From sequence record MN850581.1: 42,446 bases of DNA; one strand, 5' to 3'. This document shows positions 2,029 to 41,955 of the stretch, one piece after another (position 1 is the stretch's first letter; the number at the start of each line of letters is the position of its first letter). The notes below the pieces were generated by a model that was not told the origin of the DNA, searched no databases, and saw only the letters and a program-made list of their open reading frames with translations. The stretch comes from Escherichia phage sortkaff. The position numbers were made by a program, and so were the translations under genes.

Positions 2029-2219
2029 GGTTCTCTCTCTCGGTTGGTTGAAGGTGGGCGGCGTTGCTTCGTCGGTAGCCTCGGTTCGATTCCACTGGTA
2101 AGCGTTCTGCCTTGCGGCGAGTGTCCAGCGTTCGGCCTCACGGTTGGGAATCCTGACACTACGATCAAGCCCCTGCGTTGCTCCTCTCCGGCTGCATCCT
2201 GCCGCCGCCCTACGCAATA

Positions 2220-2248
2220 AAGATAACGGAAGCGTGATATTAATGCAA
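2220..2248 (-). promoter_or_regulatory. sigma70-like promoter (-35 TTGCAT, 17-bp spacer, -10 TATCTT) with ATCACGCTTCC in the spacer
   Basis: Minus-strand reading TTGCAT-taatATCACGCTTCCgt-TATCTT; near-identical in layout and spacer to the Dam promoter at 15484..15512. Confidence 0.45.
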
Positions 2249-2255
2249 GGATTAT

Positions 2256-2531
2256 TTATTCTTTATCATCACCCCATCGGCCAGGCTTTAGCAGGTTGCC
2301 GCGTCGCCAGTCGTCCCACACGAAGTACGGCCAGAATGCGAGCGTAAGCGCCAGGAAGAAAACGACAATCACCGCCACCAGCGCCGCCGCCAGTGGCACG
2401 AGCGACGAGGGCAGGGTGGCCGCCTCTTTGGCACAGGCGCGCCCCAGGTAGAGGCCAGCGCCCGCCCATATCTCGATCAGCATCCACGCCGCGCCGATCG
2501 CCAGGTAGGAGAAAATCATTTCGTAGAGCAT
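2256..2531 (-). CDS. hypothetical small membrane protein (two predicted TM helices)
   Basis: 91-aa ORF with hydrophobic stretches LAIGAAWMLIEIWAGAGLYL and LAAALVAVIVVFFLALTLAFW; its ATG overlaps the upstream stop (TGATG). Confidence 0.55.
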   Translation of the reverse strand: MLYEMIFSYLAIGAAWMLIEIWAGAGLYLGRACAKEAATLPSSLVPLAAALVAVIVVFFLALTLAFWPYFVWDDWRRGNLLKPGRWGDDKE

Positions 2532-2734
2532 CAGTAGATCCCATTGGTCAGAAGATACAGCCGCCCGTTTCGCATCAGGCGGATCATGTTGCTGGTCCCG
2601 TGGCCCATCGGGACCGGGTACAGGTTGCCATCTGCGGCGCGCATATACAGGCGGTTGCGGACGCGCCAGCCTTGCAGGGTGTGGCCCCGGCGTCCGTACT
2701 CGTCGCGCTTCACGTCCACGATCCGGCAGTACAC
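2531..2734 (-). CDS. hypothetical small protein
   Basis: 67-aa ORF with a GTG start and weak RBS. Confidence 0.3.
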   Translation of the reverse strand: MYCRIVDVKRDEYGRRGHTLQGWRVRNRLYMRAADGNLYPVPMGHGTSNMIRLMRNGRLYLLTNGIY

Positions 2735-2757
2735 CGGAGCCTAGTCAATCTGCATCA

Positions 2758-3138
2758 TCACCACTTCCTCCAGTCGGCAGGGTCGCGCGGGAGCTGCGCC
2801 AGGTCATGGTCCCACTTCGGGGCCTCGTCCGGCTTGCGGTAGCCGTCGTAAAGCATCTGGACCGCCGCGATCGGGTGAGCCGGGAGCGACTCATGGATGT
2901 ACAGATAGAACATGCCGCGCCGTCCCTCGTGGGTGATGCCGAAGCCGCTCCGGGTGTAGGTGTGGAGCGGCTGGTCGCCAGGTGCGGTCGGCATGGTGTC
3001 GGCGAGATACTGGATCGCGCTGGCGTGGAGTGGTGACGGCATCATGATTTGCGGCGTCCCTTCGGTCAGGGTGACGCGCTTGCCATCGTGCGGGCCTCCA
3101 ATCAGGAGCGCCTCGACTAAGTTTGCGGGGTGTTGCAT
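2758..3138 (-). CDS. hypothetical protein
   Basis: 126-aa ORF with RBS GGGAGGA 3 nt before the ATG. Confidence 0.65.
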   Translation of the reverse strand: MQHPANLVEALLIGGPHDGKRVTLTEGTPQIMMPSPLHASAIQYLADTMPTAPGDQPLHTYTRSGFGITHEGRRGMFYLYIHESLPAHPIAAVQMLYDGYRKPDEAPKWDHDLAQLPRDPADWRKW

Positions 3139-3222
3139 GGATCCTCCCAGTCTACGGGGTCGAATGATTAGCGCCTACTTGCGGCCCTCTGGGCTTCCAT
3201 CGTTCGGCGCTGGTGGTATCGG

Positions 3223-3573
3223 TCAGAATGGCGCGCCGTGGGTAGCGCGTAGCTCGTCTGGAGTCAGCGGCAGGCCGACCGGGCCGACTGGCCGCGATGC
3301 CTTGAGCTGGTTCCAGTAGGCAAACGGTCCAGCGTCGCGCCATGAATGATTGTACTTGCCGAAGGACAGGGAGCCGGAGCTGGTGGCCGGGCCATCGTAG
3401 CCGACGCGCTCAAGCTCTGCGAGCGGGACTAACATCAGCGTGTCCAGGGTGTGGACGCCATCGGGATAGCGGTAAACCTCGGCGCGCACGAGGGCAGGGA
3501 AGCGGACACGCTCGAAGCCGCTCCGCCCGTTGTAGCCGTAGGCGTCGGCGTGGAGGATCTCGATCATTTTCAT
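3223..3573 (-). CDS. hypothetical protein
   Basis: 116 aa from ATG-AAA-ATG (MKMIEIL...) within the longer six-frame ORF; purine-rich leader. Confidence 0.55.
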   Translation of the reverse strand: MKMIEILHADAYGYNGRSGFERVRFPALVRAEVYRYPDGVHTLDTLMLVPLAELERVGYDGPATSSGSLSFGKYNHSWRDAGPFAYWNQLKASRPVGPVGLPLTPDELRATHGAPF

Positions 3574-3625
3574 GGTGTTGTCTCTCGTCGGGTGGATGAA
3601 TGCCCCGTTGCCGGGGCGCTGGTGG

Positions 3626-3859
3626 TCAGACGCCGTAACGGTCGGCAAGGAAAGAAAACCAGTTTTCAAGGCTGGCGCGTTGTTTGGCTGAAATGCCGTC
3701 GCCGTAGCGCTCCACCATTTCCGCAAACTTGCCTTTGATTGCTTTGAGGCGTTCAGCGTTCACGAAGTACGGGCCGAATGCGTCAAACGCGAAGCCGGAG
3801 CGGTCGCCCGCGCGGTTAAGAATGTCTTTGATTTGTGCAACGGTGAATTTATTAGCCAT
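3626..3859 (-). CDS. hypothetical small protein
   Basis: 77 aa from MANKFTV...; RBS GGAGAAA 5 nt upstream of the ATG. Confidence 0.65.
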   Translation of the reverse strand: MANKFTVAQIKDILNRAGDRSGFAFDAFGPYFVNAERLKAIKGKFAEMVERYGDGISAKQRASLENWFSFLADRYGV

Positions 3860-3966
3860 TTTCGTTTCTCCTCTGGGGGTCGGCGATGTTGCCGCCCTAT
3901 GTGATATAAGATAAACACTTTCGGGCGGCATGTCCAGAGAAATATCACGAAAAGATTAAATTATTT

Positions 3967-4155
3967 TCAGGCCAGATCGTCGTCCACTCTCCGGCCCAGC
4001 GCTGCCACGTCGTCCTCGGTTGCCGGACGGTAGCCATAACCAGGCCCCAGCTTGCGGGCGATGTGCTGCGCCTGCGCCTGGTTCAGCGTCACGGCGATCA
4101 GATTATTGGCCGCATCGACCACGCAGTGGGCTGCGTTTGCTGCTGCTATGTTCAT
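3967..4155 (-). CDS. hypothetical small protein
   Basis: 62 aa from MNIAAANA...; RBS GAGGTGAG; ATG overlaps the upstream stop (ATGA). Confidence 0.6.
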   Translation of the reverse strand: MNIAAANAAHCVVDAANNLIAVTLNQAQAQHIARKLGPGYGYRPATEDDVAALGRRVDDDLA

Positions 4156-4388
4156 CGTCTCACCTCGTCCGCCAGCTCCTGCTCCAGTTGGGAGACCTGC
4201 GCGCAAACGTCGTCGAAGTCCTCCATCTTGTCCAGCAAGCGGCGCGCAAGATGCCTCACGACCTCCTCGCAGTCGAGGCCGCCGATCGAGCTGGGCGGAT
4301 AACCTTCGCTTAACATGGTCAGCTCTGCGTCGTCCAGCTCCTGCTCGTCCAGGTGGCGGACTGGTCGGGCCAGTTCCAGCTTATTCAT
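4152..4388 (-). CDS. hypothetical small acidic protein
   Basis: 78 aa from MNKLELARP...; RBS GAAGGGAGG; start overlaps the upstream gene's end. Confidence 0.6.
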   Translation of the reverse strand: MNKLELARPVRHLDEQELDDAELTMLSEGYPPSSIGGLDCEEVVRHLARRLLDKMEDFDDVCAQVSQLEQELADEVRR

Positions 4389-4611
4389 TGTCGCCTCCCT
4401 TCGCTGCTGCTCTGCGCTGCTCGTCCATCTTCGCCACAAACTCCCGGACGCCCTGCTCCGCGAGCGCCGTCGCCTGGTTATGGCTGTAGCCCTTGCGGCG
4501 GGCTATGTCGTAAAGCTGCTGGCGCATCGTCGCCCGTTGCTGCGGTCCTACATACATACGGGAGAGGTCCGTCACGCTTGCCGCCTGCCCTTTCGTCGTC
4601 TCTTTCATCAT
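4381..4611 (-). CDS. hypothetical small protein
   Basis: 76-aa ORF starting ATGATG with RBS ACGAGG. Confidence 0.6.
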   Translation of the reverse strand: MMKETTKGQAASVTDLSRMYVGPQQRATMRQQLYDIARRKGYSHNQATALAEQGVREFVAKMDEQRRAAAKGGDNE

Positions 4612-4631
4612 TACCTCGTTTTGTCGGGGCC

Positions 4632-5081
4632 GTAACGAAACCGTTACAGCTTGAGAATGTTACACACGATCGCGATTAACAGCGTTAACCCTGCGCCGTA
4701 GACTGCGAAACATATCCAGAGAAATGTCCACGATCCGACGGCTTCCCGGAGTGGTGTTTCCTGCTCCGGCGATGTTCTCCCTCGCGCTTTCCGGGAGGGG
4801 AATTTTATCACGTTAATAGTATGCTCCTTTGCATCACGTTTCAATGATAATTATGTGTGGAAATGGTCGGGGGTTTTGGGGTTTTAACCCCCGGCAAAAT
4901 CCCCGCCGTAACACTCAAAAAATACCCGTTACCGGAATGGCTGTAAGTTACTGAATATCATCGGTAACATTGTCGGTGTAACAGTGTTACCTTTTTGAAA
5001 CTTCGGAGCCACTGGGTAACGGTAACATAAATATATACCCCCTTTAGGGGGTATATGTTATGTAACCCGTGACCGTTACCA
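4632..5081. repeat. cluster of GTAAC/GTTAC iteron-like repeats and palindromes in a roughly 480-bp largely non-coding region
   Basis: About 13 GTAAC/GTTAC pentamers in about 450 bp: palindrome GTAACGAAACCGTTAC (4632-4647), CGGTAACAttgtCGGTGTAACAGTGTTAC (4962-4990), GGTAACGGTAAC (5015-5026), GTAACccgtgaccGTTAC (5062-5079). Also a 10-bp-arm palindrome ATATACCCCC-TTTA-GGGGGTATAT (5033-5056) and hairpin CGGGGGTT/AACCCCCG (4868-4893). Confidence 0.6.
4816..4844 (-). promoter_or_regulatory. sigma70-like promoter (-35 TTGAAA, 17-bp spacer, -10 TACTAT) with CGTGAT in the spacer and again just after the -10
   Basis: Minus-strand reading TTGAAA-CGTGATgcaaaggagca-TACTAT-taaCGTGAT; would drive the downstream early small genes (4611 leftward). 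Confidence 0.4.
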
Positions 5082-12790: not shown

Positions 12791-13027
12791 TTAACAATCT
12801 TTGTGGTCGTCCCACGGTCCGAAGCCTCCCACGTAGACAAATTCTCCGCCGTTCTCCCGGCGCTCCTGCCTGGCGTGATATGCCGCGTTCTGCCCGGTTC
12901 GTTTCTCCTGCTTCATTGCCTTGCAGGTCTTGGAACAAAAGCGGCCCCAGCCCCGTTTAAGGTCCGCCACGCGGACCTCGTGCATTTTGCCGCACCATTC
13001 GCACGGCTTGATTTTTTTAGCGGCCAT
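12791..13027 (-). CDS. hypothetical zinc-ribbon protein
   Basis: 78 aa with CEWCG ... CSKTC (C-x2-C ... C-x3-C); start overlaps the upstream gene's end. Confidence 0.55.
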   Translation of the reverse strand: MAAKKIKPCEWCGKMHEVRVADLKRGWGRFCSKTCKAMKQEKRTGQNAAYHARQERRENGGEFVYVGGFGPWDDHKDC

Positions 13028-21910: not shown

Positions 21911-22138
21911 ATGTTGGAGCCTATGATGGCACAGAAACTTAAGCCCGTTTGCCTCGTGAAAGAAGTCCGCGAGGCGAAGGGCGTAAAACAGAAAGATTTA
22001 GCGGACGCGACGGGCATCCTCCAGCAACGTTTAAGCTGCTATGAGAACGGCCACGAGCTGCCGTCTGTAACTAACCTCTGCCGCCTGGCTATGGCGTTGG
22101 ATGTTTCCATTAACGATCTGATCGAGTACGGGGTGTAA
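21911..22138 (+). CDS. XRE-family helix-turn-helix transcriptional regulator (Cro/CI-type)
   Basis: 75-aa ORF; HTH signature QKDLADATGILQQRLSCYENG; most likely start is the ATG at 21926 (GGAG 6 nt upstream). Confidence 0.7.
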   Translation: MLEPMMAQKLKPVCLVKEVREAKGVKQKDLADATGILQQRLSCYENGHELPSVTNLCRLAMALDVSINDLIEYGV

Positions 22139-22139
22139 A

Positions 22140-22514
22140 TTGAGCGATATCGACGGCATCAAAACGATCGAGGCGATTGTGGACATTATCGCCCGCACTT
22201 TCCACGAGGCTAATCGCGCCTATTGCCAGGCACTGGGCGACGATAGTCAAAAGAGCTGGGACGAGGCCCCGGAGTGGCAGCGGGAGAGCGCCCGTAACGG
22301 CGTACTGTTCCACCTTAACGGCGATCACGGCCCGGAAGCCAGTCACGAGTCCTGGCTGGCTGAGAAGCGCGCACAGGGCTGGAAATATGGCCCGGTTAAG
22401 GATGCCGAAGCGAAAGAGCATCCTTGCTTTGTGCCTTATAGCGAGCTGCCGCCGGAGCAAAAAGCGAAAGATTACATTTTCCGCGCGATCGTCCACGCGC
22501 TCGGCAAAGCGTAA
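22140..22514 (+). CDS. hypothetical protein, RyR-domain-like
   Basis: 124 aa, apparent TTG start; motifs SHESWLAEKRAQGWKYGPVKD and HPCFVPYSELPPEQKAKD recalled as typical of phage RyR-domain proteins. Confidence 0.55.
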   Translation: MSDIDGIKTIEAIVDIIARTFHEANRAYCQALGDDSQKSWDEAPEWQRESARNGVLFHLNGDHGPEASHESWLAEKRAQGWKYGPVKDAEAKEHPCFVPYSELPPEQKAKDYIFRAIVHALGKA

Positions 22515-22538
22515 TTGTTAAATCGGTATCGAGAGAAA

Positions 22539-24967: not shown

Positions 24968-27900
24968 TTACTGCTGGTTATCGTCTGCGGCGGCTCGTCC
25001 GCCAGCGCCCGAAAAGAAGCCCACGATCCCGGCCCGGTTAACTGCTGCCTGTTCCTCCGGGGTCATGGCTGCGAATAGCTCGCGCCACTGGGGGGAATTT
25101 GCCATTTCGCGCTCGGCTTCGTTGACGAAAGTCCGGCCCGCCGGGGTGAGCTTGCCGGAGCTTTGCGCCGCTGCTGCCTGCATGAGTTTATTAAAATTCG
25201 TGCCGGATAGCACATTATCCGCAAGGACCGATCGCGGGACACGGTTCGCACGGGCCAGGCCCTGGGCTGCGGACAATGCGGCGTTACCTGCCGGACCTGC
25301 TGCGGCGTATGCTGCGGCATGTTTCCCGATCCACCCAGCCGCGCCGTAGAGCTTGGACAGCGGACCGCCAGCTCCCGGATCGTCGAAGCGTTTCACGAAG
25401 TCATTGATCGCCCCGGTGGTCGTGGTGAAACGTTGTGCGCGGTCGATACCATTCGCGACGCGGTAGATCTGCATGAAGCGGACGCGCTGCTCTCGCGGTA
25501 GGTGCTTCATAACGTTCCCCAGAGTGCCGTTAGCCTGCGCCGTCTTGTACCAGTCCACGAAGCCGGGGACGGCGAAAGTATTACGCGCGCTACGTGCGCC
25601 CAGGGTACGCTCCAGCGCGTTAGCCACTACCTCGCCTTTGAGGCTCTCCGGGGTTGCCGCCATCAGCTTGTCCCAGTCGCGGGCGCTGCCGCCTTTCTTG
25701 CCCAGGTTAAGGATCGCGTTTTGCACTTTCCCGGTGATCGAGTCGTTGAGGTTTTTCCCCAGCGTGTCGATCGCGATCGTCTCCAGGTCCTTACGACGCT
25801 TAACGAGCTGTTTCCCCACGTTCCAGTCGTCCGCCGCGCCGTACTTGGCCGCGATAGCCTCCTGATCCTCGGTTAATCGCGCGTAGAGCTGTTTTAGCGC
25901 TGCCTTGTCGGAGTCCACAAACGGACCGGATCGCGTGTTAAGCGCCTGGCCTACCTGTCGGCGGAGCTTGTCCAGACGGGCATAAGTCGGCGGCCCCATA
26001 GAGTCGTTAACAGGCTGGAGCCAGTCCAGCGCCTTACGCTCTGCCGCGTCCAGCGTCCCCAGCCCCTCTACGTCCGCCTTGTCCCAGATATGGCGTAACG
26101 TGTTGTTTGCGTCCACGGTTTCGTTTTTCGGGATTTTGGTCGCGATCTGGTTATAAACGTCGTCCGCCTGTTTCCCCAGGTCGTCAATAATGGCACGGGT
26201 GCGGGTGCTAAACGCCTGATCGATCGTCTGCGCGTTCATGGTCCCCATGCTGTCGATCAGCTCGTCCGCTTTCCCGGCCAGACGTCCGATCCCTTCGAGC
26301 TGCTGGGCTTCCAGATTGGAGCCTTTGCGGCTAACGAGCTGCTGGACCGTCGCGCGGAACTGAGGATCACGCGCATAAGCCGCCGGGGTCAGCGAATCCT
26401 CGATCCCCAGTTGCTGGGCGGTGCGCATCAGCTTTTTGTCCACGTCGGCCATGTTCGCAAGGTCGATCGTGTCCTGGGAGGCCCGGAGGTTCTCGCCGTT
26501 CGGCGCGGCCACGTTCTCGTCGCCAGTAAAGCGGAATTTGCTTTGATCGCGGGCCACGGCGTCCGAAATGTTGGCCTCGGTGGCCGCCGGGGTCGGTGCT
26601 GCATCGCCAGCGGCACGAGAAGCCGCTCCAGCTTCCTCCCAGACGCCCTTAGCCGCATTCCATACCTTGCTTGCTCCGCCGATAAGCGCACGGCCTACGG
26701 CCTCGCCAGCGGGCGCTAGTGCGATGTTAGTCAGCGTCTCCTCCGGGTCGCCACGGCCAGCCGCGATCGAGCCGGGAACGGCACGAGCCGCCGGAGCTGC
26801 CACCCATTTCTCCACGCCATCGGCGACGCGGGTCAAAACGCTGGCGACTTCTGGGCTTGCGCGCTCTGCGAGGCCCATCAGCTCCGTAGCTGCTTTGGCC
26901 TTACCTGCGGACGGCAACGGCGCGAGGAGGTCCCCGATCAGGGTCCCGATCTGCGCGTATTTGTCGGTAGGCGGTTCGAAGCCGGGGATCGTCCCCGGCG
27001 GGATGTTCGGCGCTTGCGTGTCCTGGTCAACGATACCCAGCGACTTACCCGCATCCGTGGCCGCGTTGGAAACCATATTGACCAGCGAGATCGGCGTGTT
27101 GAGGAGGTCGATCCCGGTCTGGACGATACCGCGCCCGCCCTGGTCGAGAGCGTGGAGCGCGGTCTGGCCTAACTGTTCCCAGTTTTGGGCGGCTTGCTCG
27201 TTGGGATCGACGGATCCAGGGGCCTGTCCGGCTTGATCAGCGCTGCCCGGCTCTCCGTTACCGTTCGGCGCTGCCGCCCCTCGTGCGACATTAGATCCCG
27301 CTTGATTAGGTGCATTGCCAGCGGGGACGGCTGCGACTTGCTGATCGGCCCCTCCGGCTCCGGCGGTTGCGCCATTTTCTCCAGCTCCGGCGGTAAAGGT
27401 TCCTGCTTCGTCGAACTGGTCGAAAAAGTTACCAGAAGATTTAGAGCCATCCCGGCGGGCGCTGGTTGCGCGCTGAATAGGTTCGCCGCTATCGCCAGCC
27501 CCTCGACTAGTCCACTCGTTAAAACGTTCATCCACATATTGACGCCCCTCCGGGCCGGGGGTTGCCTGGCCCGCCAGTTGTTTGTCTACGTTGCCGGGGC
27601 CGTCGTGGTAAGCCTGGAGCGCAAGGCCCCAGTCTCCGTAACGCTGGTACATCTGGGAAAGGTACTGAGCCCCGGCGTCAGCCTGGAGCGCCGGATCGCT
27701 CTTGAGAGCGTTCCAGTCGTAACCCATATCCTCCGCCGTGCCTTTCATGACCTGCGTTAAACCGTGCGCGCCTTTGCTGGAGACGGCGGACGTAGGATCC
27801 GCCGTGCCGCCCGTTTCCTTGCTCGCGAGTGCCGTCATGATGCCAGCGGGTAGGCCCCATCGTGCCCCGGCGCTCTCCAGTAAATCAGAATACCCGCCGC

Positions 27901-34785: not shown

Positions 34786-35754
34786 TTAGTCTTTCTTCTC
34801 TAACTTTGCTTTCAGCTCAAAATATGCGTCCCAGTTGCCGGAGCTGCGCGCTTTTTCCTTCGCTGCTTCGAGCTGGCCGATATTTTTAGCGCCGCCGTTG
34901 CCTTTCACCTGCGGAGCGCCGTTAACGTCTTTCTTCGCTCTCGGCGCGGTTCCTGCTCGGCGATCAATGTCGGCGATCAGGTAGCCCAGGCGAATATGGT
35001 CGTTATTATAGGCGTCCTCGATCTCTTGTCGCAATTTTTCGTTACGCGCAAGAGCCATAACGGTAAGGGTAGGCTTTTGACTGTTCAGAAGCAAAGCGGC
35101 TTGCAGCGGCTCCGGCAGGGACGACACGATCTCCTCTGCCTGCTCATAGCCCGCGAATTTCTTCACGGCCACGGCGCGCTCCTGCTTGTACACTTCGCCG
35201 CGCTCCTGGATACGCGTCTGGAATTGCTCGGCCTTAGCCTGCTGGGTTTTCTGGTGAGCTTCGGCCTCGGCCTTTTGCTCATACCATTTGTCCATCGCCT
35301 CGGCCAGCTTGCCCTCGTCCCAGTCGATCCCCTCGTCGCCTAACTGCGGCTTAGGCGGCAGATTGTCGAGACTGGTCGCGGGCTTGTGTTCGGTCTGGGT
35401 GGATTTCTGTTTGAGCTGGCGGGACTGCTCGCGGAGCTGCGCGCGTAATTTCTTCACCAGATCGGAGTCGTTCGCGCCGTCCTCTACCTCGTCAGGATCC
35501 GCCAGGGGCTGGCCGTCGAAGGTAAACTCCTCGCCCTCGTCCTCGCCGTTCGGATCGTCGGTGGTGGTGCGCTGGCGCTCCGGGTTGTCGTCGTCGTTCG
35601 GATCACCTTCGCCGCGCTCGCCATTGTCGCCCGGATCGGAGTCGTCGGTGGTGGTTTCTGCGGTCTGTTCAGCCGCTCCGCCGCCAGCGTCGCCGCCCTG
35701 AGTGCCGTCGTCAAAGGCTGCGTAGTATTTTAACCATGCGTTACGAAATTTCAT
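34786..35754 (-). CDS. scaffolding protein
   Basis: 322 aa, acidic N-terminus, helical middle; C-terminal coat-binding helix resembles P22 gp8 (WDAYFELKAKLEKK versus VETYRKLKAKLKGIR as recalled); directly upstream of coat. Confidence 0.75.
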   Translation of the reverse strand: MKFRNAWLKYYAAFDDGTQGGDAGGGAAEQTAETTTDDSDPGDNGERGEGDPNDDDNPERQRTTTDDPNGEDEGEEFTFDGQPLADPDEVEDGANDSDLVKKLRAQLREQSRQLKQKSTQTEHKPATSLDNLPPKPQLGDEGIDWDEGKLAEAMDKWYEQKAEAEAHQKTQQAKAEQFQTRIQERGEVYKQERAVAVKKFAGYEQAEEIVSSLPEPLQAALLLNSQKPTLTVMALARNEKLRQEIEDAYNNDHIRLGYLIADIDRRAGTAPRAKKDVNGAPQVKGNGGAKNIGQLEAAKEKARSSGNWDAYFELKAKLEKKD

Positions 35755-35811
35755 TGTAGATCCCCGTTTTGTTGCATACGCGATGTATTTCGCCCATCGG
35801 TGGCGGGGATA

Positions 35812-35841
35812 AGTGTAAGAGAAGTTTTACATCATATGCAA
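35812..35841 (-). promoter_or_regulatory. candidate promoter upstream of scaffold (-35 TTGCAT, 18-bp spacer, -10 TACACT)
   Basis: Minus-strand reading of the 127-bp gap between the cassette and the scaffold gene; weak call. Confidence 0.25.
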
Positions 35842-35881: not shown

Positions 35882-36148
35882 CTATTTCGTGGCGGCTTTC
35901 ACGAGGCATTGAGACAGATATAGCGCTTCGTGGTGCGGCGGGACCGAAGCGGGGATCACGCAGTACAGCGCGACGTTAGGCCCCGTGTTCGCGTGGATCA
36001 TTTCGCTGGCGACTATCCGCCACTTTTCGCCGTCCGGCCCGGTCAGGATGCCGTCGAGGTCGTGTAGTTCTTCCTTGACCTGCGCGATCCGGCTTAACGT
36101 TGTCGGTCCCTTCCCTGGGAACGCGAGATAGTGATGGACGGTTTTCAA
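35882..36148 (-). CDS. hypothetical protein (cassette gene D)
   Basis: 88-aa ORF whose start overlaps the stop of gene C (ATGA). Confidence 0.55.
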   Translation of the reverse strand: MKTVHHYLAFPGKGPTTLSRIAQVKEELHDLDGILTGPDGEKWRIVASEMIHANTGPNVALYCVIPASVPPHHEALYLSQCLVKAATK

Positions 36149-36615
36149 AATGGTATGTCCAGCGGCTTGTCGTTGTTGGCCGGAGGAACGATCTCGGCGT
36201 CCTCCACGTCCTCCGCTTTGCGCGGGTTCACTTCGCGGGCTGCGTCCGCTGCGGCCACAAAATCGCCCTCCAGCGGCCCCTTGTAGGTCAGTTGTTTAAT
36301 GCTGGCGATATCTGCGAGGAGCTTCGACTCTGCCACTACAAAGTCGGCGCGGAGTTTCTGGAGTCCGGCTTCCATGATCGGGAGGCTGATCTCTGCCTGC
36401 TCCTCGGCGGTCGGCATGGTGTAATCAATATCGATCTCGATCTCTTTTAACAGGACGTAAGCCGCATTTTTGCCGCCTGAATTAATATGCTCCTGGACGC
36501 CCCAGATCGCGCCGTAATCGTAACTTTCCACGGACACGGATCCGCGCTTGTCGCCGCCCTGGCTACCTTCGGCCACGCAAAGGCAAACGTACATTGTTTT
36601 TTTGATAGTTGGCAT
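36145..36615 (-). CDS. hypothetical protein (cassette gene C)
   Basis: 156-aa ORF; RBS AAGAGGA; no recognisable motif. Confidence 0.65.
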   Translation of the reverse strand: MPTIKKTMYVCLCVAEGSQGGDKRGSVSVESYDYGAIWGVQEHINSGGKNAAYVLLKEIEIDIDYTMPTAEEQAEISLPIMEAGLQKLRADFVVAESKLLADIASIKQLTYKGPLEGDFVAAADAAREVNPRKAEDVEDAEIVPPANNDKPLDIPF

Positions 36616-36664
36616 TGTCTCTAATCCTCTTTGGGGTGGGGCGGGACGATGCCCGCCGCCGGGG

Positions 36665-37081
36665 TTATTTGTTGCGAGCGCCGATCATGCCCTGCCACAT
36701 GAAAACGACGGTATCAGATAACAGCTCTTTCACCTCGTCCTCGCCCATCTGCTCATAAAGCGAATCAAGCGCGCCGGGGATCTGCTCCCATAGTGCCTTT
36801 TGCCCTTCTTCCACCTGCGCGTCCGTCGGCTGGAGCTGGACCTCGATCGGGGAGGGTTCAGTGTCGCCGGACTTGACGCGGGGGTGAGCGTTAGCCATGA
36901 GGGCCTCGGCCTGCATACCCACCAGCGCGAACGCCGTCGCCAGTGCCGCCAGATCCTCCTCGGTCGGCTGCTGGATAAACATCTGGGCCAGACGGGCCTC
37001 CATAGTGCGGACCTTATCGCCGATCCCGTTCTCGTCGCACTCGGCCAGAATGATCGCGCGCGCTGCTTTTACTTGATCCAT
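36665..37081 (-). CDS. hypothetical acidic protein (cassette gene B)
   Basis: 138-aa ORF; RBS GAGAGAGAA. Confidence 0.65.
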   Translation of the reverse strand: MDQVKAARAIILAECDENGIGDKVRTMEARLAQMFIQQPTEEDLAALATAFALVGMQAEALMANAHPRVKSGDTEPSPIEVQLQPTDAQVEEGQKALWEQIPGALDSLYEQMGEDEVKELLSDTVVFMWQGMIGARNK

Positions 37082-37132
37082 TGTGTTCTCTCTCGTCGGT
37101 TAATGATGCCCCGGCGGTCCGGGGCGGTCTGG

Positions 37133-37570
37133 TTATGCGTTGCCCTGCGCCTGAGCGGCCAGGAGCTGGATAATCGGCTCCACGTCGGCCTCCGCCGCCG
37201 GGATAGGCAGGTCAACCACGCCGCGCGGCTCGCCTTTGGAAATGTGGAATTTCCAGATCGCCATCACGTCGTCCAGCGAGTAGCCCGCCAGGATCTCCTC
37301 GTGGATCTTCTGCGCGCCGTTGGTTTCGTTAAACTCCAGGACCTGATCAACGGTCGGCATCTGGTTCCCGAATTTCGCCATTGTGCGGGCCATGACGACC
37401 ACGCCGACGCCACGGGACAGGAAGGTGTTACCCTGCTCGCCGCCGGAAACCATCACGGCGATCTCCGGCTCGTCGGTGTTCGGGTGGTAGGCAAGGGCGA
37501 GGGTAACGAAGCCGCCGCGCGGGGTGACTTCGAAAACGCGAGCTGCTGGGGTGGTGGTGATCTCTTTCAT
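37133..37570 (-). CDS. hypothetical protein (cassette gene A)
   Basis: 145-aa ORF; RBS GAGAGAGGA; preceded by its own promoter and operator-like palindrome. Confidence 0.65.
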   Translation of the reverse strand: MKEITTTPAARVFEVTPRGGFVTLALAYHPNTDEPEIAVMVSGGEQGNTFLSRGVGVVVMARTMAKFGNQMPTVDQVLEFNETNGAQKIHEEILAGYSLDDVMAIWKFHISKGEPRGVVDLPIPAAEADVEPIIQLLAAQAQGNA

Positions 37571-37588
37571 GGTGTCCTCTCTCAGTTA

Positions 37589-37645
37589 ATCACGATAGCG
37601 TGATGTTGTGTGAGAAAGAATAGCCCGGACGTACCGGGCTGTAAA
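37589..37645 (-). promoter_or_regulatory. promoter (-35 TTTACA, 17-bp spacer, -10 TATTCT) plus 16-bp near-palindrome ATCACGATAGCGTGAT in the leader
   Basis: Minus-strand reading TTTACA-GCCCGGTACGTCCGGGC-TATTCT; the spacer is the portal terminator stem-loop; near-palindrome at plus 37589-37604 lies about +6 to +21. Confidence 0.45.
37611..37640 (-). terminator. rho-independent terminator after the portal gene
   Basis: Minus-strand stem AGCCCGG-uacgu-CCGGGCU followed by AUUCUUUCUC, about 30 nt after the portal stop. Confidence 0.55.
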
Positions 37646-37671
37646 GTGTTTTTTTACTGCTTTCGTTAAAA

Positions 37672-39906
37672 TTATTGTGCGGCACGTTCCAGGGTGTTGT
37701 CGGCCTGCTGCTGCGCCTGGCGCTCGGCCAGTTGCTGCGCTGCTCGGTCGCTCTGGATCTGGTGGCCCTGCCCTACGGATTTCAGGAACAAGTCGGCCTG
37801 TTTGTGCGCGTCCTGGCTCTGGGCCGTGACGTACTTCTGGAGGATGGCAACGGCGGCCATTAGCTGATCCTGCGGGATAGCTGCGGCCTCGGCCATCGTC
37901 TTGACGGTCTGCGCCTGCTTGAGCTGGCCGTCTGCCTGCGTCCCCTGCGCCTTGAGCTGCAATTCTAAGCGCTTGTTGTCCTGCTCCATAACGGCGGCCT
38001 TGCCCTGGTCTGCCACGCCCTGCGCTGCGACCATCTGCGCGTCCGGCTGGTCCTGCTGGCTCTGCTGGGCCTGCGCTACCATCTGTTTTTCCTCGTCCGT
38101 CTGCGGCTTCACAATGCCGGAGAGTAAAAGCTGGTTGCGGGTGTACTCTTTGAAGTCCTGGAGGCCCTCGCCGTCCATGTTCGCGATGATCAGGCTCATG
38201 ACGATCGTCGCGTTAGGGTCGCCCGGTTGCATGGTCGCTAACAGGTTAGTCAGGCTGCGGACAGTCTGCTGGCGTCGCGTCTGGGAGGACTCGCCGACGT
38301 CGGCCACGATCTCATATTTGCCGCGCTTGAGGTCGTTAATCGCGATCACTTCCTTCGTCTCGCGATCGACTACCTTCCCGGTCATTAACACGAGGTCGTC
38401 GCTCCCGTCCTCCTGCTGGATCCTCACGTAAGACTCGGAGCCGTAAACCTTGCGAGCGGCGGACAGGTAGACGCGGCCACAATGGCGCAACGTCTTAGCC
38501 AGGTTGTCCATGTAGAGCGCGCCCTGGCCGTCCATGCGCGCGAAAATTGCCTCCACGGTTTCAGTCGCCAGATTCGACGGCAGCGCTTCGAGCTGGGAGG
38601 ATCCGACAATCTGCTGGATCGTCGCCCCGGTGTACTGGAGAACGGCAGCGAGCGCCGGAGAGAGCGGAGTCGCCGGAGTATAGCCCAGCGGTCCGGCCTG
38701 CTGGACGACCTCACCAGACGCATTACGGAGCGATTTAGCGGGCAGATACGCGGGGCGCTTCGTGTTGCGATCCCCCCAGGCGTTGGCGAGATTTCCGGGG
38801 ATCATGTCGATATCCATGATCGGGATGTTGTCGCCGCCTGCCTGCGCGGCCTGGTCGGCCATCATCGACACGATCAGGTTTTCCAGACGCTGGGCGTCCA
38901 TCGCGAGCGTGGCGTGGCCCATCACGCGCTCCTGGTTGTCGATAAACGAGCGGCGCGCGTTGAAGATGAAAACCGGGATCCATTCGAACGGGATCAGCTT
39001 CGGCTCCTCGATCCACTCCCCGCCGGAAAACAGACCGCAATAGACCTTACGACGTTTGACACGGCGATCCTTGAGCTTTTTCCAGCCTGCGGCCTTAAGC
39101 TCGTCGAAAACCTGCTCCATGTCGTCCTCGTCGTAGACCTCCGTTTCCCCGGTGAGCGGGTTCTGGTAGGAGATCACGGTGGTGTCCTCGATCTTCACCT
39201 CGTAGTAACGGGCGATATAAATCGCGTCTTTAGAGGCCCAGTCAAACCATTTGCCCGTGTTCAGCTCCATGAGGTCCTCCGGGGCCATCGCGTCCGGGTA
39301 ACGCTCCTCGTACTTCTCCGGGGTCATGCTGAATAGCTCGGCCATCCACATAGCATCACTGCGATCGTACATTTTGGAGTCAGGATCGACAAAGAGGCAC
39401 GAGGCCGGATCGTAGATCGGGTAAAAGACGATGTGCCGCTCCTCGTTGTCGGGATCAAATTCGTCCTCCAGCTCCGTGTCCATGCGAAACGCGCCCATCC
39501 CGCCGTCGATGCCGTCGCCGTAAGTGTTATCGACGGACTCCGGCCCGTTGCTCTCGTTGTAGTCGGCGCGGAATTTGCCGTTTAGCTTGTCGGCCAGCTC
39601 CTCGGATGCCTTTTCGTCCTTCGGACGGAATACCACGGAGACACGGTTTAGGCGGTAATCGGTGATCAGGCGGTCGCACTCGCGGGCCACTTTGTTAAGT
39701 TCGAATCGAGGGTATTTCTCGAATCGTTCATCATCCATCGCAAAGCCGGAGTTGGTCGATCCTTCCCACTGCGCGCCCGGAATACGGACAAAGCGCTGGG
39801 TTTCGATCATTTTCTTGCGGCTTTGCTCCTCGCTGGCGATCGTCTGGCTCAGGCGCTTACGCGCCGTCTCATGCCAGTTCTGGGCCGATTTGGTGACTCG
39901 TGCCAT
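37672..39906 (-). CDS. portal protein, P22 gp1-like
   Basis: 744 aa; similarity to P22 portal recalled from memory (ARYYEVKIEDTTVISYQNPLTGETEVY ... KDRRVKRRKVY versus [27 protein letters not shown] ... AERQIKRRRVY); Gln-rich C-terminal helical region. Confidence 0.9.
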   Translation of the reverse strand: MARVTKSAQNWHETARKRLSQTIASEEQSRKKMIETQRFVRIPGAQWEGSTNSGFAMDDERFEKYPRFELNKVARECDRLITDYRLNRVSVVFRPKDEKASEELADKLNGKFRADYNESNGPESVDNTYGDGIDGGMGAFRMDTELEDEFDPDNEERHIVFYPIYDPASCLFVDPDSKMYDRSDAMWMAELFSMTPEKYEERYPDAMAPEDLMELNTGKWFDWASKDAIYIARYYEVKIEDTTVISYQNPLTGETEVYDEDDMEQVFDELKAAGWKKLKDRRVKRRKVYCGLFSGGEWIEEPKLIPFEWIPVFIFNARRSFIDNQERVMGHATLAMDAQRLENLIVSMMADQAAQAGGDNIPIMDIDMIPGNLANAWGDRNTKRPAYLPAKSLRNASGEVVQQAGPLGYTPATPLSPALAAVLQYTGATIQQIVGSSQLEALPSNLATETVEAIFARMDGQGALYMDNLAKTLRHCGRVYLSAARKVYGSESYVRIQQEDGSDDLVLMTGKVVDRETKEVIAINDLKRGKYEIVADVGESSQTRRQQTVRSLTNLLATMQPGDPNATIVMSLIIANMDGEGLQDFKEYTRNQLLLSGIVKPQTDEEKQMVAQAQQSQQDQPDAQMVAAQGVADQGKAAVMEQDNKRLELQLKAQGTQADGQLKQAQTVKTMAEAAAIPQDQLMAAVAILQKYVTAQSQDAHKQADLFLKSVGQGHQIQSDRAAQQLAERQAQQQADNTLERAAQ

Positions 39907-39923: not shown

Positions 39924-41546
39924 TCAGTAGTTGCTCGGCACATTATAGCCGTGATAGTCGTCGTTTTTCACGCGCTCCGGCGGCTGCATCAACATGCAAA
40001 GCACGTCGGCCATGCCTGGCGATTTCATTTTGAGCTTGGTCCGCATCTGCGGCTTAGGCATACGGGCAAACTTGCCGTTGGTGTTGTATACGCGCGGAAT
40101 ACGGCAGACCTCGGCGCGTAACTTCTGCATATGCTCCCCGATCCCGGCCTTGTCCAGACTGATCAGCTCCTCCGGGTTGTGGTAGATGCCTTTCACGACG
40201 GCCTCGTAAGTCTTTTCGAAGCGACGGCGTAACAGGTAGATATCCTGGCTCCCCCTGTTCGCAAAAGCATCAACATTTTTCAGGAGGTTGTCGCCCTCGG
40301 TCTTGTTGTTGAGCCAGTGATCCAGCTCCACCAGCCCGTCCGGGTCTTTGACGCCCTCCCCGGCGTTGTAGCCGTCCACGATAACGTTAGTCCCGGCGTA
40401 AGCCTCCGTTACCTGGCGACGCAGGCCAGCGCCCAGCCCTGCCCGGTCCCACACAAAAGCCTCGACGCCGTGGATCTTCGCCTCGCCGATCGCCCGGTCT
40501 ACTGCGTCGTTAGCGTCGCCCTCGTACCACTCGGACATATGGGTGACGACTGGCCCCTGGCGCTCGCCATAGGCTTTGTTATCGGTCCCGACGTCCGCCG
40601 GGTCGAGTGCTGCGATCCTCATGCCGGACGGTTTAAAGCCTAAATGCAAATGAGCGTCGATCGCGGCATCAAACCATTCAGCCGGGATAATGGCATCCGG
40701 CACGGAGTCATTGAAATGACCTTCCCAGACGTGATCGAACAAGGCGCGGGAGAGGGTTTTCCGGTCAAACTCCATTTCTGCGCGGAGTTCGGGCGGAAAC
40801 CACGGGTTATCCGACCAGTTGACGCGGATAACCAGGTGGAGATCGTCCTCATAGATGCCGTCGCGGAGTAGATCCTCCCAGAATGGATTAATAAATCGCT
40901 TGCTGAATGGGTCCTCACTGGATCCGGGGTTGGCGGTGAATAGCATCATGCCGCCCTTTTCGCGCATGGTCGGCGTCAGCTTGCGGATCGACTCCTCGGA
41001 GAACGTTTGCGCCTCCTCGCCCCAGAATCGTTTGAAGCCGAAAGCGGATTTCACGCCGTCCGGGTCGCGGGCCATCCCCTTAAAACGGATGATCGCGCCG
41101 TTCTCGTGGCGGATCTCCTTCTCCAGAATTTCGAAGCCGTCCAGACCGTACTCCTCGATCCGGTTGGCGAGGAGCGGGTGGACAGAATCCTTGATCGACG
41201 CCTGAAACTCACGCAGACACATAGCGCTCGCGGCCTCGTCGTGGGCGTCTGCATCCACGATCCCGCCGACGGTGAGCGACTTCCCGGAGCCACGGCCCCC
41301 GACCAGGATAACGAAGCGTTTCGGGCGTAACAGGATGGGCGTCAGGCACTCGGCGATCGTAATGTCGTGCGGGTCGCTGGTGTAAACCCACTCGCCGTTA
41401 ACCTTGCGCATGTTGTACAGGTGGCGCGCCTGCAATCCATCCGGCGCATAGACGCCGTAAACCAGGCCGCCCTCGCGCGCCTTGTAGCGGAGCATGGCCT
41501 CCAGTCGGGCCAGTCGCTCGATCGCCTCCTTACGATTTTTTGCCAT
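39924..41546 (-). CDS. terL: terminase large subunit
   Basis: 540 aa; Walker A VILVGGRGSGKS; size and position directly upstream of portal. Confidence 0.85.
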   Translation of the reverse strand: MAKNRKEAIERLARLEAMLRYKAREGGLVYGVYAPDGLQARHLYNMRKVNGEWVYTSDPHDITIAECLTPILLRPKRFVILVGGRGSGKSLTVGGIVDADAHDEAASAMCLREFQASIKDSVHPLLANRIEEYGLDGFEILEKEIRHENGAIIRFKGMARDPDGVKSAFGFKRFWGEEAQTFSEESIRKLTPTMREKGGMMLFTANPGSSEDPFSKRFINPFWEDLLRDGIYEDDLHLVIRVNWSDNPWFPPELRAEMEFDRKTLSRALFDHVWEGHFNDSVPDAIIPAEWFDAAIDAHLHLGFKPSGMRIAALDPADVGTDNKAYGERQGPVVTHMSEWYEGDANDAVDRAIGEAKIHGVEAFVWDRAGLGAGLRRQVTEAYAGTNVIVDGYNAGEGVKDPDGLVELDHWLNNKTEGDNLLKNVDAFANRGSQDIYLLRRRFEKTYEAVVKGIYHNPEELISLDKAGIGEHMQKLRAEVCRIPRVYNTNGKFARMPKPQMRTKLKMKSPGMADVLCMLMQPPERVKNDDYHGYNVPSNY

Positions 41547-41955
41547 AGCCTAAGCCCTCGTAAGCCCGTTCAATCTGGGTAAACAGCGCGCCGACCAGAT
41601 ACGCCTCCGGCTCGTCGTTCTCCGGTCCCCAGGTGATATTAAAATCATCTGCGATAAAGTTTTTGATGTGGACGACCTCGTGGGCCACGACCGCGCGCCA
41701 GTGCTGGCTCCGCTTAATTTGCACGATCGCCACATAGGCGTCGTCGGTGACGTAGGCCGTCGCTCGGCCACTCTGGCAGGGCTTCGCCGGGTCGCGCCAG
41801 TTCTCCAGCGCCTGATCCATTACCTCCAGGTGCGCGTCGTTCTGCGGGTCGATACAGCAAACGAGATAGGGGTAAGGCGTCGCCAGAAACCACTCGATCC
41901 CCAGCTTGTCGAAGCGCCCGATCGTGTCAGGCGGTAACTTATTTTTTCTGCTCAT
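41530..41955 (-). CDS. HExxH-motif protein, possibly ImmA/IrrE-like zinc metallopeptidase
   Basis: 141 aa; RAVVAHEVVHIKNF fits the AHExxH signature of ImmA/IrrE-type peptidases; overlaps both neighbours. Confidence 0.55.
   Translation of the reverse strand: MSRKNKLPPDTIGRFDKLGIEWFLATPYPYLVCCIDPQNDAHLEVMDQALENWRDPAKPCQSGRATAYVTDDAYVAIVQIKRSQHWRAVVAHEVVHIKNFIADDFNITWGPENDEPEAYLVGALFTQIERAYEGLGYGKKS

Follow-up and report, generated by a model that had tools for sequence, protein, structure and literature searches.

A plastic accessory module between the portal and scaffolding genes of P22-like phages encodes a protein whose C terminus may mimic the SSB C-terminal tip

Anti-defense and host-takeover proteins are known to be encoded at variable accessory loci that interrupt otherwise conserved structural operons of phages. 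In T4, the internal protein (IP) locus comprises small, fast-evolving, individually dispensable genes that lie among head genes and whose content is shuffled between close relatives. At least one of its products, IPI, is an anti-defense factor delivered with the DNA, and the IPs carry a cleavable N-terminal capsid-targeting sequence for which the prohead protease is needed. In P22 (Lederbergvirus), the scaffold gene (3893-4804) follows the portal gene (1702-3879) directly, with a gap of 13 nt. At the protein level, the C-terminal tip of SSB (SSB-Ct, DDDIPF), through which enzymes of DNA repair and replication are recruited, is an established docking motif; its partners number at least 17 (PMC5872125, PMC7145534). 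Bas52_0087, an SSB-like protein of a phage that ends in FDDDIPF, triggers DRT10 and has been implicated in interference with ExoI; oligomerization has also been implicated, and an interface with ExoI and host ssDNA processing was proposed by its authors (bioRxiv 10.64898/2026.04.29.721553). We found no report in the literature of a non-OB protein with an SSB tip.

The stretch of DNA analyzed here (hereafter the window; 42,446 nt, Escherichia phage sortkaff, MN850581.1) belongs to Sortsnevirus and is about 98% identical to Klebsiella phage IME279. It is the genome of a P22-like lytic phage in which four small minus-strand genes, A-D, occupy a slot between the portal and scaffold genes:

37672..39906, minus strand: portal gene (744 aa), which bounds the slot upstream (Pfam P22_portal, E = 3.9e-154; phrog_156)
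37571..37671, minus strand: portal-A intergenic control region, with a hairpin, a promoter-like site, a palindrome and an SD-pairing stem, all of putative function
37133..37570, minus strand: gene A, 145 aa, pI 4.7, with an ATG start and the SD GAGAGAGGA
37108..37125, minus strand: GC-rich A-B hairpin GCCCCGG-ACCG-CCGGGGC, read from the sequence, with the junction sequence ACCGACGAGAGAG next to it
36665..37081, minus strand: gene B, 138 aa, pI 4.3 (phrog_35278, unknown function, E = 1e-84)
36640..36657, minus strand: GC-rich B-C hairpin GGCGGG-N6-CCCGCC, read from the sequence
36145..36615, minus strand: gene C, 156 aa, pI 4.45 (27 clusters, all in this phage clade)
36148..36159, minus strand: D-I-P-F codons of the C-terminal tip of C, a look-alike of the SSB C-terminal tip (alignment of 27 homologs)
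35882..36148, minus strand: gene D, 88 aa, with a TTG start that overlaps the stop codon of C (TTGA)
35812..35841, minus strand: putative promoter-like site TTGCAT-18 nt-TACACT in the D-scaffold gap, read from the sequence, with a conserved leader downstream
34786..35754, minus strand: scaffolding gene (322 aa), which bounds the slot downstream (phrog_648, E = 9.6e-79)

The gene order otherwise follows that of P22 (terminase, portal, scaffold, coat, gp4-, gp10- and gp26-like genes, ejection proteins); both the portal and the coat family have homologs in P22, and profile searches of Pfam and PHROGs place the P22_CoatProtein gene after the scaffold gene. A first-pass annotation of this DNA had correctly stated that portal and scaffold are adjacent in P22. 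Where P22 has its 13 nt, however, this clade has 1.1-1.9 kb, 2-5 genes and a control region of its own. All four ORFs that had been listed in the window are present on the minus strand at the expected lengths and positions, and A-D are genuine genes. Independent gene callers found the identical 145-138-156-88 set on other contigs, and all four genes are under purifying selection, with dN/dS against relatives in the region of 0.1-0.5 for the four (gene by gene: A, 0.1-0.6; B, 0.15-0.6; D, about 0.2 against short forms of its family); for C, comparison with IME279 gave zero non-synonymous changes at a dS of 0.09. The initial description of their translation signals was accurate for A, which has an ATG start and a Shine-Dalgarno sequence, but not for D, which has no Shine-Dalgarno sequence of its own and overlaps C through TTGA rather than the reported ATGA. 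The same TTG start codon is used in KMB41, L032 and L036.

No motif had been recognized in the four products at the outset. No homology to known head-assembly proteins was found for them, and no structural role has been assigned in any relative. Searches of A-D against Pfam, NCBIfam, PADLOC and PHROGs returned the PHROG of B as their sole match, with 0 PADLOC matches at E values up to 1 and only noise from Pfam and NCBIfam, and thus no known defense or anti-defense family. The slot families had no match in the PDB, and profile searches of PDB sequences with B, C and D gave none above noise. In large-database searches the slot protein families were all confined to this phage clade, and deeper profiles for A-D are impossible because every homolog falls within it. 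The B, C and D families showed no relationship to one another by hhalign. A look-alike segment, 'PTAEQ..EAG', occurs in both B and C.

The A-D proteins are small and soluble. A is predicted to form a five-strand sheet with helices (AF2 pLDDT 60-84); its family is found only in Sortsnevirus, with 8 clusters among 5.8 billion proteins, mostly on phage-sized contigs of roughly 40 kb, and BLASTP of A against the first slot protein of Kc166B found nothing. B, which is 100% identical to sortkaff_56, is predicted to be all-helical (six helices in AF2, pLDDT 55-79) and has 50 clusters in a large-database search, every one of them from this clade. The idea that B is a DNA mimic was dropped, its acidity being modest (17% Asp+Glu, net -13) and structural matches being absent. 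D, with five predicted strands and a C-terminal helix (AF2 pLDDT 83-90), is the short form of a family whose gene closes the slot in almost every relative; a search of 1.84 billion representatives gave 13 for this family that are genuine, whereas a match to a 924-aa repeat protein (P0043) was spurious. A Foldseek search of the PDB with a concatenated A+B+D model gave nothing better than E = 0.2, the only matches being weak ones to PUR-alpha. Apart from weak fold similarities, A, B and D offered no functional clue.

We compared the slot using the annotations of 13 phages, family clustering and 34 loci including metagenome contigs. It is occupied in every relative examined (Sortsnevirus, Murrayvirus, Skarprettervirus, Hungariovirus, unclassified phages and metagenome contigs) by small genes from about nine families, in a conserved relative order. 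Viable isolates differ in which genes they have: D is absent from IME279, C from Sortsne, Kc237, ST231 and Lumpael, and B from KMB41, C130_2 and Skarpretter. Because each of A-D is absent from some viable isolate, they are not indispensable parts of head assembly. Mapping of breakpoints between the window and IME279 revealed an extra gene, X (90 aa), at the A-B junction of IME279, and X is 64% identical to a gene located after D in a Hungariovirus-like contig. D itself looks ancestral and appears from the sequence to have been deleted later in IME279, where a remnant of its 3′ end persists. The breakpoints of gene exchange are clean and fall at conserved junctions, with TTCGAAGGGGCTTACGC standing before three different genes and ACCGACGAGAG before either B or X. 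In L026, identity is 97.6% for the portal and 64-91% for the slot proteins. C and D are retained together across genera with portals only 60% identical.

These comparisons bear directly on the view, put forward in the first-pass annotation, that the four genes are an inserted cassette and possibly a moron. That view is not supported, given that the slot is filled in all relatives by shuffled families and that GC content is 0.56-0.65 inside the slot and in its flanks alike. A classic moron or recent foreign insertion would be an independently transcribed unit, captured elsewhere and of benefit to the lysogen or host; the promoter-like site and terminator-like hairpin upstream of A and the unknown function of the genes would fit such a unit. 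The slot also resembles lambdoid morons in its clean gain and loss of genes at junctions and in its short conserved gene-end sequences beside differing neighbors. It differs from them in having no compositional anomaly, no lysogen to benefit, an ancestral position and a fixed relative gene order. Moreover, homologs of A-D occur only on phage contigs of this clade; a search of 5,426 E. coli genomes gave none, and the annotation of IME279, a close relative, lists neither an integrase nor any other gene of lysogeny. This explanation was rejected on composition and distribution, and we consider it highly improbable. The annotation had also stated that the presence of the same four genes in most P22-like relatives, with assigned structural roles, would count against an accessory module. 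Half of this is borne out: homologs of each of the four do occupy the portal-scaffold position in many relatives, but no role has been assigned to any of them, and not one of the four genes occurs throughout. The slot is an ancestral, recombination-prone accessory site common to the Sortsnevirus, Murrayvirus, Skarprettervirus and Hungariovirus clade. The small-protein families on which it draws, about nine in number and in several cases acidic, are private to the clade; they are gained, lost and swapped at conserved junctions with their order kept.

The slot also has a control region of its own. The hairpin, which is conserved, the promoter-like site and the palindrome of the operator type had all been reported at the outset and were found between portal and A. 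The hairpin (AGCCCGG-TACGT-CCGGGCT, 37622-37640, followed by AUUCUUUCUC) lies downstream of the portal gene and constitutes the spacer of the promoter-like sequence TTTACA-17-TATTCT (37645-37617). Its stem is kept in other genera by compensatory changes (CCGG/CCGG, CCGC/GCGG, CCCA/TGGG). The palindrome ATCACGCTATCGTGAT (ATCACG-CTAT-CGTGAT) lies at 37589-37604, and palindromes of this type are enriched genome-wide (14 sites against 1.85 expected), with 8 of the 14 intergenic; judged by sequence, the operator type recurs at other putative promoters of the phage. A candidate for the protein that binds it is encoded by the gene homologous to IME279 gp26, which is annotated 'transcriptional repressor'. 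The control-region RNA has a predicted folding energy of -31.2 kcal/mol (z = -6.0), with a predicted stem in which UUCUUUCUCA pairs with the gene A Shine-Dalgarno sequence UGAGAGAGGA. Folding of 10 relatives likewise yielded an SD-sequestering stem in 6, with differing SD sequences. The portal-scaffold module is apparently regulated separately and is extra relative to P22. The hairpin and promoter-like site lie upstream of it; no convincing terminator follows D, where a second promoter-like site stands instead. This site was missed at promoter-scan thresholds; its counterpart in KMB41 reads TTGCAT-18-TAAACT, with an unrelated spacer and an identical downstream sequence, CCCGCCACCGATGGGCGAAATACATCGCGTATG.

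The position of A-D in the head operon suggests late expression, and it is one at which a replication factor would be less expected than a protein that is structural or packaged. The four proteins could be minor internal head proteins that are packaged via portal or scaffold contacts, ejected with the DNA and active in the first minutes of infection, in the manner of the hypervariable T4 IPI-III or T7 gp6.7 and gp7.3. Like the T4 IP locus, the slot lies among head genes, here between portal and scaffold, and is hypervariable between relatives beside conserved neighbors, as the L026 identities illustrate; its products are small, soluble and each individually dispensable. Homologs of B and of another slot family (f3) are labeled 'internal virion protein' in the GenBank record of Kc237, a label given without published evidence, and the C-terminal peptides conserved among slot proteins (FEGAYA, MIGAR.K and IPF) could serve as docking signals. 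A literature search turned up neither functional nor proteomic work on this clade, nor proteomic support for packaging in any relative. The N termini of the four proteins (MKEITTT, MDQVKAA, MPTIKKT and MKTVHHY) have no common motif, and no C-terminal targeting motif is shared across A-D. P22-type heads have no maturation protease for the processing of targeting peptides, and the interval from portal to coat contains no gene for a protease. Furthermore, the P22 ejection set (gp7-, gp20- and gp16-like) is already encoded downstream. We regard internal head proteins as an unlikely, if serious, explanation, and one compatible with a role of C through its SSB-like tip, should C be delivered with the DNA.

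The N-terminal domain of C is rich in strands and contains a CxC that is invariant; a helix of 41 residues, a disordered acidic tail and the C-terminal tip follow. AF2 pLDDT exceeds 90 for residues 1-110 and is below 50 for residues 114-148; the core is a confident model of beta strands and a long helix without an OB fold, and C lacks the OB domain of the SSB family. Its tail is of the SSB-family type, with a disordered linker leading to an acidic tip that ends in Ile-Pro-Phe. In the window, C ends in ...NNDKPLDIPF and the phage's own SSB in ...MDFDDDIPF, such that the last four residues of C are identical to those of both this SSB and E. coli SSB. The match to SSB-Ct comprises these four residues and their acidic context only, KPLDIPF being less acidic than the tip of SSB. 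In its architecture, too, C is like SSB, with a folded, probably oligomeric core, a disordered acidic linker and a terminal Asp-Ile-Pro-Phe-COOH.

A six-frame translation of the window has 465 ORFs of 50 aa or more, and an [IVLF]PF terminus occurs in just two of them, SSB and C. An (I/V/F)PF terminus is present in 23 of 27 C homologs, preceded by a tail that varies in length and sequence, and the last nine residues of the homologs have a net charge of -1 to -4. The tip has the sequence features of SSB-Ct, namely a terminal Phe, a preceding Pro and branched hydrophobic residue, and acidic residues, and it is conserved at the peptide level: all four tip codons show synonymous differences between the window and IME279, and the tip is retained where gene D does not overlap it (e.g., in C130_2 and Skarpretter). 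The tip is not indispensable to the role of C, given that four homologs terminate at DAEIV instead. Searches with C tail peptides as queries found nothing above noise. C resembles Bas52_0087 in being a second phage-encoded protein, besides the canonical SSB function, with an SSB tip on a disordered C terminus. However, Bas52_0087 has two predicted OB folds where C has none, and the two proteins have no sequence relationship and differ in genomic context.

The likeness to SSB-Ct could also be coincidental, in which case the IPF of C and the other conserved termini might bind a component of the phage itself, such as portal, terminase, coat or scaffold, and the slot proteins might be non-essential assembly chaperones or scaffold auxiliaries. 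The operon position is consistent with this, as is the joint retention of C and D across genera despite 60% portal identity, and the long helix and acidic tail of C are reminiscent of scaffolding proteins. Four distant C homologs have weak matches to phrog_2932, 'head scaffolding protein' (E = 5e-4 to 1e-2; 5e-4 for the Skarpretter type), but these amount to about 20 bits and are limited to the coiled helix, and no PHROG scaffold match was found for A-D of the window. C has no similarity to the phage's own scaffold, on which ground a scaffold paralog was rejected. Several viable phages have no C and IME279 has no D, and P22 assembly needs no such proteins. Docking on a phage partner seems to us rather improbable.

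The reading that we favor, with a probability of about 0.4, is that the slot is a plastic module of accessory genes and that C imitates the C-terminal tip of SSB. C would be a 'pseudo-SSB', in which a non-OB core displays an acidic disordered tail and an Ile-Pro-Phe-COOH tip and the long helix probably drives oligomerization. Since it carries the SSB docking tip, C would bind SSB-interacting host or phage proteins; its partners would be ExoI, RecQ, PriA, RecO, the chi subunit, DnaG and others, which it would sequester or redirect. The module, A, B and D included, would then supply DNA-metabolism, host-takeover or counter-defense factors and not capsid parts. In a bolder form of this proposal, which we hold to be doubtful, C would be the first member of a new class of phage factor. 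As a coiled-coil 'pseudo-SSB' with no OB fold, it would show SSB tips without binding ssDNA, and it would titrate the SSB interactome of the host (ExoI, RecJ, RecQ, PriA, RecG and others) or direct it to other targets; it would act late in infection or, if packaged, on entry. The slot would then be a hyperplastic locus of DNA-metabolism and counter-defense effectors within a structural operon. The interpretation first given to the module is supported in part. Of the functions suggested with it, anti-defense or host-directed roles and head-accessory roles both remain candidates, and the SSB tip on C is the first concrete handle.

One variable accessory locus of a structural operon is now defined across four genera in its gene families, junctions and control region, and a testable molecular hypothesis is supplied for one orphan protein, C. 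If A-D are packaged, this clade would have a P22-type analog of the T4 internal proteins. If a non-SSB protein does use the SSB tip, it would represent a compact viral access to a central hub of bacterial genome maintenance, with relevance to antibacterials that imitate the SSB tip and to bacterial defense in which SSB or ExoI is monitored, such as DRT10 and retron Eco8-type sensing.

The minus strand carries every gene of the terminase-to-coat part of the window, and four of these genes, called A to D, lie in the portal-to-scaffold interval (the slot):

41546-39924, minus strand: large terminase
39906-37672, minus strand: portal, 744 aa (Pfam P22_portal, E 3.9e-154)
37570-37133, minus strand: gene A, 145 aa
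37081-36665, minus strand: gene B, 138 aa
36615-36145, minus strand: gene C, 156 aa
36148-35882, minus strand: gene D, 88 aa
35754-34786, minus strand: scaffold, 322 aa (phrog_648)
34767-33490, minus strand: coat (P22_CoatProtein)

In P22 itself, 13 nt separate portal from scaffold, so the premise of the first-pass annotation, that one gene directly follows the other there, was correct. Its four ORFs of 145, 138, 156 and 88 aa were also recovered, with small corrections. Convincing ribosome-binding sites, claimed for all four, are present for A, B and C, which start with ATG after a purine-rich Shine-Dalgarno (SD) sequence, but not for D, which lacks its own SD in the sequence read at the C/D junction. 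D starts with TTG within CCA TTT TGA, and its overlap with C is TTGA rather than the ATGA reported; KMB41 and two metagenome phages show this TTG coupling as well. Pairwise dN/dS against relatives, in unsaturated comparisons, was ~0.1-0.5 for all four genes, C has no amino-acid changes relative to Klebsiella phage vB_KpnS_IME279 (Sortsnevirus) at 9% synonymous divergence, and the 145-138-156-88 set was independently called on other metagenome contigs. Judged by these sequence measures, A to D are real genes. The products of A, B and C are acidic (pI 4.3-4.7), and protein B is sortkaff_56 of Escherichia phage sortkaff (100% identity).

The slot region is ~98% identical to IME279, and the window is a complete, circularly permuted IME279-like genome in which about eight small loci are replaced or carry indels (2022-2031, 3226-4563, 12791-13016, 22138-22533, 25889-26601, 35893-36145, 37084-37090 and 41546-41937). 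No match to the region was found among 5,426 complete E. coli genomes. The IME279 slot differs from that of the window by two clean cassette events: it carries a gene of another family, X, as an insert at the junction ...ACCGACGAGAG, immediately upstream of B, and it has lost D except for ~12 nt from the 3′ end of that gene. Elsewhere, a 141-aa ORF (41530-41955, minus strand; phrog_1365, unknown function) that overlaps the large terminase start is replaced relative to IME279, with no megablast match for 41546-41937; it is another variable locus, in a place where one would expect a small-terminase-associated gene.

Two to five small genes were present between portal and scaffold in 34/34 loci, drawn from 13 deposited phages (Sortsne-, Murray-, Skarpretter- and Hungariovirus and unclassified Kosakonia phages) and from IMG/VR, Logan and ENA contigs. 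All-against-all BLASTP placed them in about nine families (A; f3, 73 aa; f8; the optional X, f5 and f7; B; C; and D, which comes in short (88-91 aa) and long (116-153 aa) forms in alignment A1). Their relative order is fixed: A, f3 or f8, then X, f5 or f7, then B, C and D.

Slot content in the window and relatives
Window: A-B-C-D
IME279: A-X-B-C
Sortsne and several contigs: A-B-D'
Kc237: f3-B-D'
sortsyn: f3-B-C-D
Lumpael: f3-f5-B'-D
KMB41: f3-f7-C-D
C130_2, Skarpretter, STP9: C-D'

Each of A to D is absent from at least one plaque-forming isolate. A Hungariovirus-like contig has a version of X (64% identity) behind D, different neighbours adjoin short conserved gene ends (FEGAYA-stop/TTCGAAGGGGCTTACGC, MIGAR.K-stop and (L)DIPF-stop), and GC in the slot (0.56-0.65) equals that of the flanks. 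The first-pass annotation had read 35882-37671 as an inserted cassette; the genes are indeed extra relative to P22, but gene content across the clade indicates that the slot, filled in every locus, is a clade-wide, ancestral and recombinationally plastic accessory slot, not an insertion. With the small corrections above, its observation itself is confirmed. Between the window and locus L026, portal is 97.6% identical and scaffold only 79%. Set against L026, L027 and the Murrayvirus loci, the acidic, low-complexity scaffold N-terminus (80-100 residues; 35450-35754) diverges much faster than portal and is not alignable in Murrayvirus, so the hypervariability of the slot reaches into the scaffold gene. 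In IME_EC2 (L004/L018; slot positions 788-1257), a frameshift, whether genuine (making a pseudogene) or a sequencing error, splits the C homologue into 68- and 103-aa ORFs; the gene is intact in the near-identical sortsyn. The unannotated OR754315 (L009, 'Stutzerimonas phage STP9', UNVERIFIED_ORG) carries a C130_2-like (Hungariovirus) portal-C-D'-scaffold region with a C protein 80% identical to the window's, and its Pseudomonas-group host label looks doubtful.

The 101-nt portal-A spacer (37571-37671, minus strand) has a predicted folding energy of -31.2 kcal/mol (z = -6.0 versus shuffled sequences). Its hairpin 1 (AGCCCGG/CCGGGCU, then AUUCUUU), kept across genera via compensatory changes, looks like a leaky intrinsic terminator and doubles as the 17-nt spacer within a promoter-like TTTACA...TATTCT. 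Predicted base pairing joins the U/C-rich tract after hairpin 1 to the gene A SD; equivalent anti-SD pairings of different sequence are also predicted for spacers of the Skarpretter-, Hungario- and other Sortsnevirus types, and none for Murrayvirus portal-side spacers. Since the -10-like hexamer overlaps the anti-SD of gene A, a promoter-started transcript would have a free SD and portal read-through would not, which suggests that only promoter-initiated transcripts would be translated from the first slot gene. The palindrome ATCACG-N4-CGTGAT has 14 sites in the window at ≤2 mismatches (1.85 expected), 8/14 of them intergenic; 16-nt sites lie at 74, 2223, 4833, 15487, 16462, 19008, 21892 and 37589. 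Three fall in 17-nt spacers of sigma-70-like promoters of early/middle genes:

2223: palindrome inside TTGCAT..TATCTT
15487: palindrome inside TTGAAA..TATGTT
19008: palindrome inside TTGCGA..TATAAA

A phage-encoded regulator probably uses the palindrome as its operator. Ahead of scaffold (35755-35841, minus strand) lie a second promoter-like site, TTGCAT-18-TACACT, and the conserved leader CCCGCCACCGATGGGCGAAATACATCGCGTATGCAACAAA. Scaffold autoregulation is known for P22, and by analogy the leader may be a scaffold autoregulation site. KMB41 carries an almost identical leader despite a scaffold protein of only ~50% identity.

That the four ORFs hold no recognisable motif was borne out by profiles from Pfam, NCBIfam, PADLOC and PHROG, which gave no match for A, C and D and only phrog_35278 (unknown function) for B. 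Exhaustive searches found no more than 8 clusters (A), 50 clusters (B), 27 clusters (C) and 13 genuine representatives (D), many on ~40-kb phage-sized contigs, with no member name pointing outside this phage clade. PDB profile searches returned noise alone, and hhalign no relationship among B, C and D. Modelled as a single chain joined by Gly-Ser linkers, A is predicted to form helices and a sheet of five strands (pLDDT 60-84), B six helices (pLDDT 55-79) and D five strands with a C-terminal helix (pLDDT 83-90); against the PDB (Foldseek) this model gave no match with E below 0.2, and the weak matches were to PUR-alpha repeats only. GenBank calls the Kc237 (L002) B and f3 homologues (QQV88632, QQV88633) 'internal virion protein', a label for which the corresponding paper (PMC8402661) offers no mass spectrometry or other support.

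At least 17 partner proteins are known to dock on the C-terminal tip of bacterial SSB, DDDIPF (PMC5872125; PMC7145534), and the phage's SSB has the same DDDIPF terminus. Among 465 six-frame window ORFs of ≥50 aa, an [IVLF]PF terminus occurs in the phage's own SSB and C only, and the match of C to the SSB tip is short. An (I/V/F)PF terminus is found in 23/27 C homologues (alignment A4), among them LDIPF, PDIPF, FDDIPF, DGIPF and NVPF, after 10-15 residues of variable length and sequence; in the other 4/27 the protein is shorter and stops at another conserved motif, DAEIV. The window (GAC ATA CCA TTT) and IME279 (GAT ATC CCT TTC) encode identical C proteins yet have a different synonymous codon at each of the four tip positions, and the tip persists in homologues free of overlap with the following gene, which shows that selection acts on the peptide. 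Strand 1 of protein C (36145-36615) also contains an invariant CxC (residues 11-13), and the 'disordered' tail of the protein (residues 111-143) holds two more conserved motifs, YKGPxEGDFVAAAD.AREVNP and EDAEIV. According to a 2026 preprint, the DRT10 defence system is triggered by an SSB-like phage protein that has an OB fold and the tip FDDDIPF, and the authors propose ExoI interference by that protein (bioRxiv 10.64898/2026.04.29.721553). C shares this layout of core, disordered acidic linker and tip, with a core that is no OB fold; by analogy, we file C as a protein that would work like an SSB tail, not as an SSB family member. The main rival, that slot proteins are packaged internal head proteins, could accommodate the tip of C too. 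The best-supported mechanism, to which we give a probability of roughly 40%, is that the slot genes may form a dispensable module for DNA metabolism or counter-defence in which C would act as an SSB-tip mimic.
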